11,981 nt of DNA, from positions 1-11,981 of the IMG/VR virus record IMGVR_UViG_2606217102_000003. One strand, given 5' to 3'. The notes below the pieces were generated by a model. The model was not told the DNA's origin and searched no databases. It saw only the letters and a program-made list of their open reading frames with translations. This stretch comes from a virus. Lineage: Duplodnaviria; Heunggongvirae; Uroviricota; Caudoviricetes. A program made the translations under genes and the position numbers. This document shows positions 23 to 4,520 of this stretch, in pieces. Position 1 is the stretch's first letter. Each line of letters opens with the position of its first letter.

Positions 23-259
23 TCACTCACCTGAGTTTCTTTCCAGCCAGCGACGGGCACCATTTTCGGTTTTAAACGTTTTGCTTTTGGTATACGTCAT
101 CGCGGTGAACGTACCGTCCTGGTTGGGGAACACGCCACATACCAGAGATTCGTTGTTGCCAAGATCGATAGTATCCATGCTGACCTCATTTCCCCTTAAC
201 GCCGGGGTAGCGGAACAAAAACCTGCTGCATAGTTATTAAAGTTGAACCCTGCCGTCAT
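23..259 (-). CDS. Hypothetical small protein (78 aa); first ORF downstream of the candidate leftward early promoter
   Basis: Complete minus-strand ORF in the track. A GAGG Shine-Dalgarno lies about 10 nt upstream of the ATG (reverse complement of 257-259). Sits directly downstream of the operator-bearing region at 360-404. No family recognised. Confidence 0.4.
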   Translation of the reverse strand: MTAGFNFNNYAAGFCSATPALRGNEVSMDTIDLGNNESLVCGVFPNQDGTFTAMTYTKSKTFKTENGARRWLERNSGE

Positions 260-359
260 GTTCTTACGCCTCGGGCTGGCTACTTAACCCCTGACCACTG
301 CCTGGTAACTCGAGGTATTGCCCTGTATTGTGTGGGACGGGATGGGTTGGTATGGGAAA

Positions 360-404
360 ACTATAGGAAATGCCTAATTACTTGTCAATAGGCTATGCCT
401 AATA
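360..404 (-). promoter_or_regulatory. Candidate leftward early promoter (P_L-like) overlapped by an operator copy
   Basis: On the minus strand: -35 TTGACA (rc of 382-387), 16-bp spacer, -10 TATAGT (rc of 360-365). The 21-bp element ttgtcaataggctatgcctaa (382-402) is the exact reverse complement of 1027-1047 on the other side of the repressor gene. Extra GCCTAAT half-site-like motifs at about 372-378 and 414-421. Confidence 0.45.
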
Positions 405-496
405 ATTTGGGCGCAACCTAATAGGTGATGGTTTGTGGAAGAGGTAGTAGGAGTTAACTAACGGGAACTAGGAATTTCCCGTCGGACCATATAAGT

Positions 497-973
497 TTAA
501 GTTCCTGTCTTGGTGATGTTCTGGCTTTTCCGTTTTGATTCTTGATTTTTCAGATAGTTAGCTACCTTCATTTCCATTGCGGCAATGTAGGCGCGAACGT
601 CATGATCAACCCAACTAGGCTCCGTAGCATTTCCAGATAAGATGAAAGCCACAATTGCTCTTTTTTCATCAGAGGCGGCTTGATAAAGGCTGTTTATGTC
701 TAAAAGTTCACTTTTTGTATCTGAAGTGGATGGGGTTGGTATGGGGTATTCGTTAAGCCCCCAATGCTCTGGACCAACCACATCAGAAAAGAAACGCCAT
801 AGTTCTGGAAGTTTGTCTTTACTTATCGAACCTTTCTTAATCCAGTCATGGATTGATGGTGGTTGGACTTTGAAATGACGTGCGATTTCCGCCTTTGATT
901 TGACGGCTCCTGATGCAATTTTTTTGTTAATGGCCTGCTCTATCGCTCGGCCTAAGTCTTTACCACTAAGCAT
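497..973 (-). CDS. racR: Prophage repressor, RacR-like (CI-type HTH DNA-binding protein, 158 aa)
   Basis: 158-aa ORF with an N-terminal HTH-like segment (SKAEIARHFKVQPPSIHDWIKKG). Divergent from ydaS/ydaT-like genes, the same arrangement as the Rac immunity region. GGAGA RBS upstream of the ATG. Symbol assigned by synteny and length, not by alignment. Confidence 0.75.
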   Translation of the reverse strand: MLSGKDLGRAIEQAINKKIASGAVKSKAEIARHFKVQPPSIHDWIKKGSISKDKLPELWRFFSDVVGPEHWGLNEYPIPTPSTSDTKSELLDINSLYQAASDEKRAIVAFILSGNATEPSWVDHDVRAYIAAMEMKVANYLKNQESKRKSQNITKTGT

Positions 974-1025
974 TGCTTAATAGTCTCCTATGCGCATCGC
1001 GTTAGGCAATCCCTACTCTCGATGT

Positions 1026-1070
1026 ATTAGGCATAGCCTATTGACAATTTCATTAGGCTAAGCCTAATAT
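1026..1070 (+). promoter_or_regulatory. Candidate rightward early promoter (P_R-like) with two palindromic operator sites
   Basis: -35 TTGACA (1042-1047), 17-bp spacer, -10 TAATAT (1065-1070). Near-palindrome ATTAGGCATAGCCTATT (1026-1042) overlaps the -35; perfect palindrome ATTAGGCTAAGCCTAAT (1052-1068) overlaps the spacer and -10. Confidence 0.55.
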
Positions 1071-1097: not shown

Positions 1098-1421
1098 ATG
1101 AAAAAAGATAACTATTCATTCAAACGAGCTTGTGCTGTTGTCGGTGGGCAATCAGCAATGGCTAGGCTTTTAGGTGTATCTCCTCCAAGCGTAAATCAAT
1201 GGATCAAAGGTGTACGTCAGTTACCTGCTGAGAGATGTCCTGCGATTGAACGAGCAACAAAAGGTGGTGTCCTGTGTGAAGAACTTCGTCCTGATGTTGA
1301 TTGGACATACTTACGACGCTCGTCATGTTATTCGCAGAATATGTCGATGAAGCAACCAAATGACGAAAACGATCATACCCGAAGCATCAAGAGGCAAATG
1401 ATTCATGAAAATCAAACATGA
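1098..1421 (+). CDS. ydaS: YdaS-like Cro-type HTH protein (107 aa)
   Basis: GGAG RBS at 1086-1089, 8 nt before ATG 1098. Protein begins MKKDNYSFKRACAVVGGQSAMARLLGVSPPSVNQWIKG, which matches my memory of YdaS-family proteins. Positioned as first rightward gene opposite the repressor. The track start at 1077 is probably too far upstream. Confidence 0.75.
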   Translation: MKKDNYSFKRACAVVGGQSAMARLLGVSPPSVNQWIKGVRQLPAERCPAIERATKGGVLCEELRPDVDWTYLRRSSCYSQNMSMKQPNDENDHTRSIKRQMIHENQT

Positions 1422-1830
1422 GCACATCCGCATGGCGATGAATGCCTGGGCATACCCTGATGGTGAGAAAGTTCCTGCAGCTGAAATAGCCCGGACTTAT
1501 TTCGAACTGGGGATGACGTTCCCTGAACTGTATGACGACAGCCATCCGGAAGCCCTGGCTCGCAATACCCAGAAAATTTTCCGCTGGGTAGAGAAAGACA
1601 CCCCTGATGCAGTTGAAAAAATTCAGGCGTTGTTACCAGCGATCGAAAAGGCAATGCCACCTTTGCTGGTGGCCAGAATGCGCAGCCACAGTTCAGCTTA
1701 TTTTCGGGAGCTGGTGGAGATGCGGGAGCGACTGGTGAGAGACGCTGATGATTTTGTCGCAGTGGCAATCGCCGGTTTCAATCAGATGAACCGTGGTGGC
1801 CCGGCAGGAAATGCTGTGGCAGTACATTGA
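1405..1830 (+). CDS. ydaT: YdaT-like protein (141 aa)
   Basis: Overlaps the ydaS-like stop by 17 nt (translational coupling). N-terminus MKIKHEHI and position match the YdaT family as I recall it. Confidence 0.65.
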   Translation: MKIKHEHIRMAMNAWAYPDGEKVPAAEIARTYFELGMTFPELYDDSHPEALARNTQKIFRWVEKDTPDAVEKIQALLPAIEKAMPPLLVARMRSHSSAYFRELVEMRERLVRDADDFVAVAIAGFNQMNRGGPAGNAVAVH

Positions 1831-3012: not shown

Positions 3013-3435
3013 GTGGCAAAAGTTTTTACACAAGAAGAGCGAGAAAAAATTAAAGGGCAGGTTGTTGAACTCGTACGCCAGAGTGGGCGTGAGACGTTAC
3101 GGCAACTGGAAGTCAAGACAGGTGCGACAAGATATCTGATGAGCGTTCTCGCAAGAGAGCTGGTTGCCAGCGGCGATGTATACAACTCTGGTTACGGGTT
3201 ATTCCCGTCTGAACAGGCGCGTAAGGACTGGCAAAATGCCCGTAAAAAGCTCTCAAGGGCAAAGCTGAAGAAACCATCTGCGGTTGATCCGGACCTTATC
3301 TGGTCATTACCTGACGGAGAAATACGTCGCTACGACAGGCGTCAGAACATAATCTGTCGCGAGTGCCGGAAGAGTGAGGTTATGCAGCGTGTGCTGGCAT
3401 TTTATCAGGGTAATTTTCAGGAGGTGATGGCGTGA
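3013..3435 (+). CDS. Hypothetical phage protein (140 aa), possible winged-helix N-terminus
   Basis: AGGAGG RBS at 3002-3007, 5 nt before GTG 3013. No confident family assignment. Confidence 0.5.
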   Translation: MAKVFTQEEREKIKGQVVELVRQSGRETLRQLEVKTGATRYLMSVLARELVASGDVYNSGYGLFPSEQARKDWQNARKKLSRAKLKKPSAVDPDLIWSLPDGEIRRYDRRQNIICRECRKSEVMQRVLAFYQGNFQEVMA

Positions 3436-3728
3436 GGGTGAGGGTTTATATCGCCGGTCCAATGACGGGGTATGAAAATTTCAACCGTGAGGCGTTTCAC
3501 AAGGCAGAAGAGGAACTGAAACGGGAAGGGCATACCGTCTTAAACCCGGCAGTACTTCCGGACGGGCTGACACAGCCGCACTACATGGATATTTGCATGG
3601 CAATGATTCGTTGTGTGGATGCGATTTACATGCTGAAAGGCTGGCAGCGGTCAGCGGGCGCTAAGGCAGAGCTGGCACTGGCGGAGAAACTGGGGCATGC
3701 GGTGATTTATCAGGAGGTGGCTCAATGA
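3432..3728 (+). CDS. DUF4406-like protein (nucleoside 2-deoxyribosyltransferase-like fold), 98 aa
   Basis: N-terminal motif VYIAGPMTGYENFNREAF is characteristic of the DUF4406 family as I recall it. GTG start overlaps the upstream stop (GTGA). Confidence 0.6.
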   Translation: MRVRVYIAGPMTGYENFNREAFHKAEEELKREGHTVLNPAVLPDGLTQPHYMDICMAMIRCVDAIYMLKGWQRSAGAKAELALAEKLGHAVIYQEVAQ

Positions 3729-4186
3729 GAGAGGTTAACTATGAGGCGCTTCGTGAGGCAGCACAAAACTATCAGTCGACGCTGGCGTGGTATCAGGCTA
3801 TCCCGGACAGCCCAAATGCTGAACGGGATTGTGATGCGGCTCTTGCTGCGTTTAAGCGTCATATCCGTCATCGGGAAGCGGATATTATCGCTGATTTGCT
3901 GGATGGACTGGAAGAAGCAAAATCACAACTCAACGAGCAGCGTGAGTATTACGAAGGCGTTATCTCTGATGGGAGCAAGCGTATTGCTGAACTGGAAGCG
4001 CGGGAAGTTCAATTACCGACTCGCTACGACCTTCGATATGGACACCCGATAAATGCAGATGAGCGACATGTCATGATACCTAAAGAAAATGGCAGTTGGC
4101 TTTACCTGATTGACCTAGAACACGCATTACGCGTCGCTGGCATTCGCATCAAAGGAGAGGAGCATGGAAATAAAACCAGAGGATGA
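3725..4186 (+). CDS. Ead/Ea22-like phage protein (153 aa)
   Basis: N-terminus MREVNYEALREAAQNYQ resembles Ea22-like proteins of lambdoid phages. ATG overlaps the upstream stop (ATGA). Confidence 0.55.
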   Translation: MREVNYEALREAAQNYQSTLAWYQAIPDSPNAERDCDAALAAFKRHIRHREADIIADLLDGLEEAKSQLNEQREYYEGVISDGSKRIAELEAREVQLPTRYDLRYGHPINADERHVMIPKENGSWLYLIDLEHALRVAGIRIKGEEHGNKTRG

Positions 4187-4520
4187 GTTAAGCAATATCG
4201 TTTTATTTCCGGTAAAAGAGGATGACCCTCGTAATCAGGTTAATTTTCTTTATGAGCCATCGGAAAGACCATATTGTCATCACGCCTCTGTCCGGGTTGA
4301 CGAAAAAGAGCGTCAGGTCCGCTGTAAAATCTGCGGTGCAGTTGTGGAGCCATTTGACTGGATGCTCTCTGTGGCGAAAAGAGAAACCAGACTGGCAGAT
4401 GATGTAAGGCTCTTGCGTCAGGAGGAGCGGGAAAGGCGAAAAAATATAGAAAAGCTAATTCAGATTGAGCGTAACGCGAAAGCGCGGATACGCAGGGCGA
4501 CAAAATCCAGAACTGAATAA
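4164..4520 (+). CDS. Hypothetical phage protein with putative zinc-ribbon (CHH...CKICG), 118 aa
   Basis: ORF overlaps the upstream gene by 23 nt. Cys/His cluster and basic C-terminal tail. No family recognised. Confidence 0.5.
   Translation: MEIKPEDELSNIVLFPVKEDDPRNQVNFLYEPSERPYCHHASVRVDEKERQVRCKICGAVVEPFDWMLSVAKRETRLADDVRLLRQEERERRKNIEKLIQIERNAKARIRRATKSRTE

Follow-up and report, generated by a model that had tools for sequence, protein, structure and literature searches.

Positions 355–1398 of the DNA analysed here (approximate limits, set by homology breakpoints with heteroimmune phages) probably form a Rac-like immunity cassette, comprising PL/OL, racR, OR/PR and ydaS, in which the repressor RacR controls two outward-facing early promoters through two operator arrays, with bridging between the arrays probable. 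RacR is among the few essential transcription factors of Escherichia coli K-12 and restrains toxic prophage genes. What is found here is the RacR/YdaS/YdaT lambdoid switch, already known and with a published operator motif, and it leaves the general picture unchanged: lambda, Qin and CP-933P have each been shown to have this textbook lambdoid layout. The right half of the switch is already published for the Rac prophage of K-12, and the same hexamers and sites occur in our sequence; the left half is a conserved, expected and apparently undescribed second operator with its predicted promoter. The sole new element is the explicit recognition of this conserved candidate OL/PL for RacR-type immunity, together with the reading of the RacR octamer that would result from it.

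Results

The analysed stretch of 11,981 bp (hereafter the window) has matches of 100% identity in E. coli chromosomes and represents the early region of a lambdoid prophage whose insertion adjoins potC. The racR gene (497–973, minus strand) encodes a 158-aa repressor with an N-terminal helix-turn-helix (HTH) domain of the lambda-cI/Xre type and a non-S24 C-terminal oligomerisation domain, and it is divergent from genes for a Cro-like and a CII-like protein. The Cro analogue is ydaS-like (1098–1421, plus strand; 107 aa; PF15943 YdaS_toxin, 3.8e-30; P22_Cro, 1e-08), and the ydaT-like CII analogue (1405–1830, plus strand; 141 aa; PF06254, 6.8e-10) lies outside the immunity-specific cassette. On the other side of racR, ydfA (DUF1391; 23–178, minus strand; an alternative start at 259 gives 78 aa) is the first gene of a leftward operon that the predicted PL would drive, followed in a genome 100% identical to the window by ydfC, dicB, an exonuclease gene, xis and int. 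The record of that genome carries no annotation of dicF.

The gene enclosed by the inverted repeats had been taken for a phage repressor in the first-pass annotation, an assignment made specific by the NCBIfam equivalog NF049929 for RacR (246.3 bits against a cutoff of 200, residues 1–145) and by 91% identity to a protein cluster named RacR. An AlphaFold2 model (pLDDT 78.6) consists of a five-helix N-terminal domain, a disordered linker (residues 78–89) and a helical C-terminal domain, and in a fold search with this predicted model the N-terminal domain resembled that of lambda cI, in keeping with the lambda cI/434/Xre type of HTH. A sequence search of the RacR profile against PDB chains yielded nothing meaningful (best E 0.19). 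Pfam domains were not detected in RacR, and this includes the Peptidase_S24 domain of the autocleaving LexA/CI repressors; RacR acts CI-like at DNA yet stands outside the S24 family. Beta-proteobacterial relatives keep the N-terminal domain (72–78% identity over residues 1–76) and have the same operators on both sides, but bear a Peptidase_S24 domain in place of the RacR C-terminal one; S24 is present in three relatives that share the RacR N-terminal domain (L012, L016 and P0101). Because the S24-bearing relatives keep both the DNA-binding domain and the operators, the two operator sets and the DNA-binding domain are the conserved unit, with an interchangeable effector domain.

A scan of all 11,981 bp for ATTAGGC-N3-GCCTAAT with at most three mismatches returned seven matches, starting at 362, 387, 406, 965, 1001, 1026 and 1052 and thus all within 362–1068, where 0.45 were expected by chance and none of 200 shuffled sequences reached seven. 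Exact TTAGGC/GCCTAA hexamers are confined in the same way, all seven copies in the window falling within 372–1067. By analogy with lambda we named the sites OL1–OL3 and OR1–OR4; their centres are spaced by 25 and 19 bp on the left and by 36, 25 and 26 bp on the right. The arrays also contain the longest exact inverted repeat of the window. Positions 382–402 had been described as the exact reverse complement of 1027–1047, which they are, and the perfect repeat is in fact longer, 23 bp instead of 21 (382–404 and 1025–1047, with 620 nt between the arms); 30 mononucleotide shuffles gave 12–16 bp. Equally present is the second palindrome reported at 1052–1068, ATTAGGCTAAGCCTAAT, a perfect 17-bp match with 8-bp arms around a central A. 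Two extra GCCTAAT half-sites had been listed as well, and here the claim holds for 372–378 and fails for 414–421, the actual letters being ACCTAAT at 416–422. Both of these half-sites are the good halves of complete but degenerate 17-bp sites (362–378 and 406–422), and two further right-hand sites, at 1001–1017 and 965–981, were absent from that annotation.

The right array occupies the 124-bp spacer between the divergent racR and ydaS genes, and four sites plus PR in such a multi-operator spacer is the arrangement of lambdoid immunity regions. OR4 (ACTAAGCATTGCTTAAT, 965–981; published K-12 name O3) overlaps the racR ATG (971–973), where its role is probably negative autoregulation; outside Escherichia, 18 of 19 homolog loci (L018 being the exception) and phage KpF5 have a site whose spacer contains the ATG. 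An isolated GCCTAA half-site at 950–955, inside the racR coding sequence, corresponds to the single extra TTAGGC site of PMC9638921. OR3 (GTTAGGCAATCCCTACT, 1001–1017) lies in the racR promoter region and is homologous to the operator that overlaps the PR -35 in other genera, TTAGGCAATTCCTAT-TGAC. OR2 (ATTAGGCATAGCCTATT, 1026–1042; one mismatch), contained in the right arm of the repeat (1025–1047), abuts or overlaps the -35 of PR, and OR1 (1052–1068; no mismatches) covers the spacer and -10 with its centre at about -17. The promoter scan placed PR (PydaS) on the plus strand with TTGACA at 1041–1046 and TAATAT at 1065–1070, an 18-nt spacer and a 10/12 match.

RacR binding, footprints and promoter at this right operator have been shown in K-12. 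There, RacR binds the racR–ydaS spacer by EMSA and ChIP-qPCR, and GCCTAA/TTAGGC repeats were noted (PMC5700373). DNase I footprints, which cover the OR1 region, gave ATTAGGC as the monomer site and operators of the form (T/A)TAGGC-n3-GCCTA(T/A), including one that covers the racR ATG (PMC9638921); the window's sites starting at 965, 1001, 1026 and 1052 fit this form in its racR–ydaS spacer, again with one over the racR ATG. Primer extension mapped a single ydaS start with -35 TTGACA and -10 TAATAT, and replacement of TAATAT by CCCGGG abolished ydaS promoter activity (PMC9638921); the same -35 hexamer was mapped in PMC11879457.

Downstream of racR, a second operator set of three sites combined with TTGACA-17-TATAGT extends over 360–422, as would be expected of an OL/PL; 74 bp separate the racR stop (497) from the nearest site (422), with no ORF between them. 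The predicted PL reads along the minus strand with its -35, TTGACA, at 383–388 and its -10, TATAGT, at 360–365 (11/12 match, 17-nt spacer), and its transcription start is predicted near 353. OL2 (AATAGGCTATGCCTAAT, 387–403; one mismatch), within the left arm of the repeat (382–404), abuts or overlaps this -35 with its centre at about -42. OL1 (TATAGGAAATGCCTAAT, 362–378; centre at about -17) covers the spacer and -10; it is a weak match here, with three mismatches overall, in which the right half fits 7/7 and the left half, doubling as the -10, 4/7, but its counterpart has 0–2 core mismatches in most other genera, and TAGG and CCTAAT are invariant in a six-genus alignment, as is the GTCAA of the -35. 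OL3 (TTTGGGCGCAACCTAAT, 406–422; three mismatches), a third and weak site, lies to the racR side of PL; it is recognisable in Escherichia only and is not kept in other genera. PL and PR share a common design, with one operator at the -35 and one over the spacer and -10, 25–26 bp apart, and it is because of this shared design that the 23-bp block of operator plus TTGACA appears in mirror image.

Comparison with related prophages, which had been proposed as a check on the sites, strongly supports the left operator. An alignment of RacR homologs led to 23 loci of about 5 kb with a RacR-type DNA-binding domain, taken from species-representative genomes. In 13 of the 23, from about nine genera, a pair of sites exactly 25 bp apart is kept downstream of the repressor gene, and the motif matches almost nowhere else in these loci. 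The pair lies at +546 to +616 in Escherichia, Mixta, Morganella, Proteus, Erwinia and two metagenome bins (L004 and L008), and at +1167 to +2557 in Achromobacter, Pigmentiphaga and Burkholderia. One of the bins, L004, is labelled Nanosynbacter yet is identical to the E. coli loci. The remaining ten loci, among them Klebsiella sp. L009 with a full-length RacR, lack the pair in the retrieved flank of 2.5 kb. Every pair reads (site)TTGACA-spacer-(site)TA..AT outward from the repressor gene, matching the layout of the PR in its own locus, with TAATAT, TAACAT, TAGTAT or TACTAT as the -10 counterpart in other genera. The isolated Klebsiella phage KpF5 has the same downstream pair, with a restriction-like cargo gene between the repressor gene and the pair.

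The left sites are also inherited together with racR. Phages Tritos and vB_EcoS-689R5 are 94–97% identical to positions 1–347/354 and 1399–2600 of the window, with nothing matching in between; their repressors in this slot are different ones, a 139-aa HTH_3 protein and a 214-aa protein that combines HTH_3 with S24, and in each of these cassettes a separate repeat motif flanks the repressor gene on either side. From the breakpoints at 347/354 and 1399 it follows that the left sites belong to the specificity module of racR, so that operators, repressor and cro move between heteroimmune phages as a unit, as is characteristic of lambdoid immunity. One repressor serving both promoters, as the first-pass annotation had predicted, is upheld on the right by the published K-12 operator, and on the left it is favoured by the cross-genus footprint, by this co-inheritance and by the 40–70-fold rise of leftward Rac genes that follows reduced racR expression in K-12 (PMC6765115).

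The Rac prophage of K-12 belongs to the same family (RacR 91% identical in protein sequence; about 87% DNA identity over 191–1428) and shares the half-site ATTAGGC, the PR hexamers TTGACA/TAATAT, the site over the racR ATG and the YdaT box. It also has left sites downstream of racR, at 2129–2145 and 2154–2170 of the retrieved K-12 locus (L001), whereas published work is confined to the racR–ydaS intergenic region; in the part of the Rac literature that we covered we found no mention of a left operator or promoter. The two differ in that the repeat is perfect over 23 bp in the window and the K-12 operator spacer departs from it by one base, and in that the left arm of the window's prophage is Qin-like (ydfA, ydfC, dicB) where K-12 Rac has ydaG, ydaF and kilR.

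Discussion

We envisage a switch in which RacR dimers would recognise the 17-bp ATTAGGC-N3-GCCTAAT sites, OR1–OR4 overlying PR, the racR promoters and the racR start codon, and OL1–OL3 overlying a presumably strong outward PL that would feed the early-left operon of ydfA, ydfC, dicB, exonuclease, xis and int. RacR filling OR1/OR2 and OL1/OL2 would occlude RNA polymerase at PR and PL, and because occupancy of the paired sites would exclude the polymerase, one repressor could silence both early operons; OR3 and OR4 may tune the racR promoters. RacR is an octamer in solution, so that tetramers bound at the two arrays would probably span the 0.64 kb from OL to OR in the manner of lambda CI. That octamer was established for K-12 RacR by size-exclusion chromatography, and its authors read it as four dimers on the four right-hand repeats and not as an OL–OR bridge (PMC11014345). 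The published octamers are the sole pointer to looping, which they suggest. The centres of OL and OR are 639 bp apart here, 641 bp in K-12 and 0.6–2.6 kb elsewhere; we set helical phasing aside as an argument, the distance not being conserved and phasing being uninformative for loops of such length. We likewise infer RacR binding at OL, activity of PL and bistability, and 'bistable', for the switch in the window, is a term borrowed from the sister systems CP-933P and Qin. The switch may also be less symmetrical than that of lambda, since YdaS is reported not to repress racR in K-12 (PMC9638921).

Several features set this arrangement apart from lambda. CI has an S24 autocleavage domain where RacR has none, and RecA-mediated induction is therefore not expected. 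The OL–OR distance is about 2.4 kb in lambda compared with 0.64 kb in the window, where no cargo of the rexAB type lies between racR and PL. Operators are centred at -17 and -42 in the window, as opposed to on the -10 and -35 in lambda, and unlike lambda the window has a fourth right-hand site over the start codon.

Two other E. coli prophages are close parallels. CP-933P of E. coli O157:H7 (PaaR2, YdaS, YdaT) likewise combines a YdaS-type Cro and a YdaT-type CII with a short octameric repressor that lacks S24. Its PL has a -35 and -10 identical to those of PR and three OL sites, and in a GFP reporter it was repressed about 100-fold by the repressor and by YdaS (PMC8630535). However, the CP-933P repressor is not a member of the RacR family, the operator consensus is GTTTAGTAA and not the ATTAGGC-based motif of the window, which accordingly is not of the PaaR2 type, and a toxin-antitoxin pair, paaA2-parE2, sits between repressor gene and PL where the window has its 74-bp gap. 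In Qin, the dicA–dicC region pairs a short non-cleavable repressor with sets of three operators each at dicCp and dicBp, which are analogous to PR and PL, respectively, and dicBp drives ydfA-ydfC-dicF-dicB (PMC10448788); repressor family and operator sequence differ from those of the window.

Two outward TTGACA promoters had been proposed from the outset, and our scan of 200–1200 returned exactly those two. The count equals the shuffle mean (2 against 2.0), and the weight of PL and PR therefore comes from their position and conservation and not from their number. A promoter-like count that does not exceed chance is what one would see if the left copy bound RacR without being a promoter, acting as a looping anchor or as a roadblock against read-through from racR, with TTGACA and TATAGT there by accident; read-through from the racR promoter towards kil is indeed documented, and is handled by Rho (PMC4150792). 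We nevertheless consider this account unlikely. An outward TTGACA with a -10-like hexamer at a 16–18-nt spacing accompanies 14 of 14 independent downstream pairs in a PR-like layout, and the left border of the cassette falls a short way past the PL -10, in the region of the predicted start (about 353), so that homology with the heteroimmune phages begins where a shared transcript would be expected to start. The equivalent promoters of CP-933P and Qin are active, moreover. With regard to elements that might accompany a PL, we found no terminator-like site in 200–1200, and an Rfam scan of 1–1200 (E ≤ 1) gave no match to a nut/put-like or sRNA element in the PL leader. A hairpin 3' of the racR stop (455–480, minus strand), considered as a terminator insulating PL, was rejected since its folding energy is no better than that of shuffled sequences (z -0.85).

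If PL is a promoter, the question arises which protein would run it. When racR expression is lowered in K-12, ydaF, ydaG, ydaE, racC and kilR rise 40–70-fold (PMC6765115; PMC11014345), while the RacR regulon is described as uncharacterised (PMC11014345). This rise of the leftward genes could be indirect, via YdaS/YdaT or prophage excision, and another group attributed the silencing of kil to a Rho-dependent terminator inside racR (PMC4150792), an account that is compatible with the PL model but does not require PL. PL could accordingly be real and be governed mainly by YdaS or some other factor, the more so as the RNA-seq support for RacR is indirect and YdaS itself binds DNA and is a competitor at the right operator (PMC11014345). 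We regard this as very unlikely, given that three half-sites on the left match the footprinted RacR half-site 7/7 and that, from genus to genus, the left sites go with the RacR-type DNA-binding domain, including cases in which it is joined to a different C-terminal domain.

Slightly less probable still is that the left copy is a non-functional relic of duplication or gene conversion across racR, for which the perfect identity over 23 bp may be cited. The Escherichia right operator has, moreover, one extra unit compared with other genera, and this unit is identical to the left -35 unit, so sequence has probably moved between the two sides. A relic would be expected to decay, yet in the six-genus alignment of the racR-downstream spacer nothing but the two left operators and the -35 is invariant, the flanks being unalignable, and the left sites persist at variable distances of 0.5–2.5 kb. 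Recombination sites that invert the 620-bp racR segment in the manner of phase variation, as perfect inverted repeats around a short segment might suggest, are all but ruled out by the constant orientation of racR in the window, K-12, phage 683R6, KpF5 and all 23 homolog loci and by the absence of an adjacent invertase gene, with the best E. coli matches being single collinear pieces and operator plus -35 fully accounting for the repeat.

RacR control of both promoters thus remains our preferred reading, and the left operator offers a second interpretation of the published octamer. We give slightly less than even chances to the stronger proposition that the RacR-type left operator is functional, was overlooked and is the true partner of the octamer, with a loop of about 0.64 kb joining OL1–OL2 to OR1–OR2, and that DNA-binding domain and OL/OR form an ancient unit. 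Were this so, the loop would tighten repression of the lethal ydaS–ydaT operon, set racR autoregulation via the ATG-overlapping site, and silence the killer genes on the left (kilR in Rac, dicB here) directly. The models of four dimers on four repeats and of kil silencing by Rho only would then need revision, and the DNA-binding domain with OL/OR would represent an ancient unit, common to phages of beta- and gamma-proteobacteria, that has acquired by grafting either an S24 autocleavage or a RacR oligomerisation domain. More immediately, the conserved candidate left operator and promoter provide a testable direct route for control of kilR, dicB and the recombination and excision genes by RacR. 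The racR-downstream region that contains them is present in 1086 of 5426 complete E. coli genomes, about one in five.

Operator units and repressor domains

Comparison with the regions upstream of the RacR-homolog genes in other genera (loci L006-L024) revealed that the right operator (1001-1068) carries one operator unit more in Escherichia. This additional unit, TTAGGCATAGCCTATTGACAA, has exactly the sequence of the left -35 unit, and the ancestral -35 unit of the right operator, TTAGGCAATCCCTAC, has lost its TTGAC in Escherichia. The sequences suggest that a left-side unit was copied into the right operator of Escherichia, an event that, if true, would also account for the perfect 23-bp repeat.

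Repressors of Achromobacter, Pigmentiphaga, Pectobacterium and others combine a RacR-type DNA-binding domain with a fused Peptidase_S24 domain (proteins P0100, P0101 and P0114). In two loci encoding such fusions (L012, 2498-3598; L016, 2498-3403), the same TTAGGC-N3-GCCTAA operators are retained on both sides of the repressor gene, and two to three cargo ORFs lie ahead of the left operator pair. In the S24-fused repressors, a domain has clearly been exchanged while the operator system stayed fixed. In Klebsiella phage KpF5 (L029), the left operator pair is separated from the RacR-like repressor gene by a gene (3149-4303) whose 384-aa product carries a type I restriction HSDR_N domain; in lambda, rexAB occupies this position. 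By analogy with rexAB, the location indicates that the KpF5 protein is probably lysogen-expressed defence cargo.

Borders of the immunity cassette

An exact 13-nt direct repeat, GGGTTGGTATGGG, occurs at 344-356 and 733-745, and the motif GGATGGG accompanies both copies (at 340 and 728). The first copy is located at the left edge of the immunity cassette, where the PL transcript is predicted to begin, and the second falls in the part of racR that encodes the interdomain linker (YPIPTPS), the point at which relatives exchange the C-terminal domain. By rough estimate, only about 0.005 repeats of 13 nt would be expected by chance in the 851-bp region; the direct repeat may represent a recombination footprint.

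The predicted PL transcript begins with ~32 nt (322-353, minus strand), CCCAUACCAACCCAUCCCGUCCCACACAAUAC, that are C-rich and nearly devoid of G, a composition that resembles a Rho-loading site. A scan of positions 1-1200 against Rfam (E ≤ 1) returned no match. The block at 260-354 is 90-95% conserved in approximately 3750 of 5426 E. coli genomes, in which it adjoins several immunity types.

At the opposite end of the cassette, a YdaT box, ATGATT-N6-AATCAA (1398-1415), holds the ydaT ATG (1405) in its spacer and has the same sequence as the YdaT box of K-12 (PMC11879457). Its start coincides with the right cassette border (1399) identified by comparison with heteroimmune phages, and YdaT and its box are thus common to these phages.

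Replication and late regions

Clusters of GTCAC(G/A) repeats with ~10-bp spacing and two tandem copies of ACAGATAAAGAT (2030-2068, 2290-2338 and 2337-2360) all fall within the replisome-organiser gene (1896-2972), where they are probably iterons of the phage replication origin. In the prophage late region we detected two tRNA genes, one with anticodon CAT (10427-10502; Met, or Ile after modification) and one for Arg-TCT (10600-10676). The near-identical genome L026 has Ile, Arg and Arg tRNAs annotated ~170 bp further along, so an indel distinguishes the two sequences in the tRNA region.
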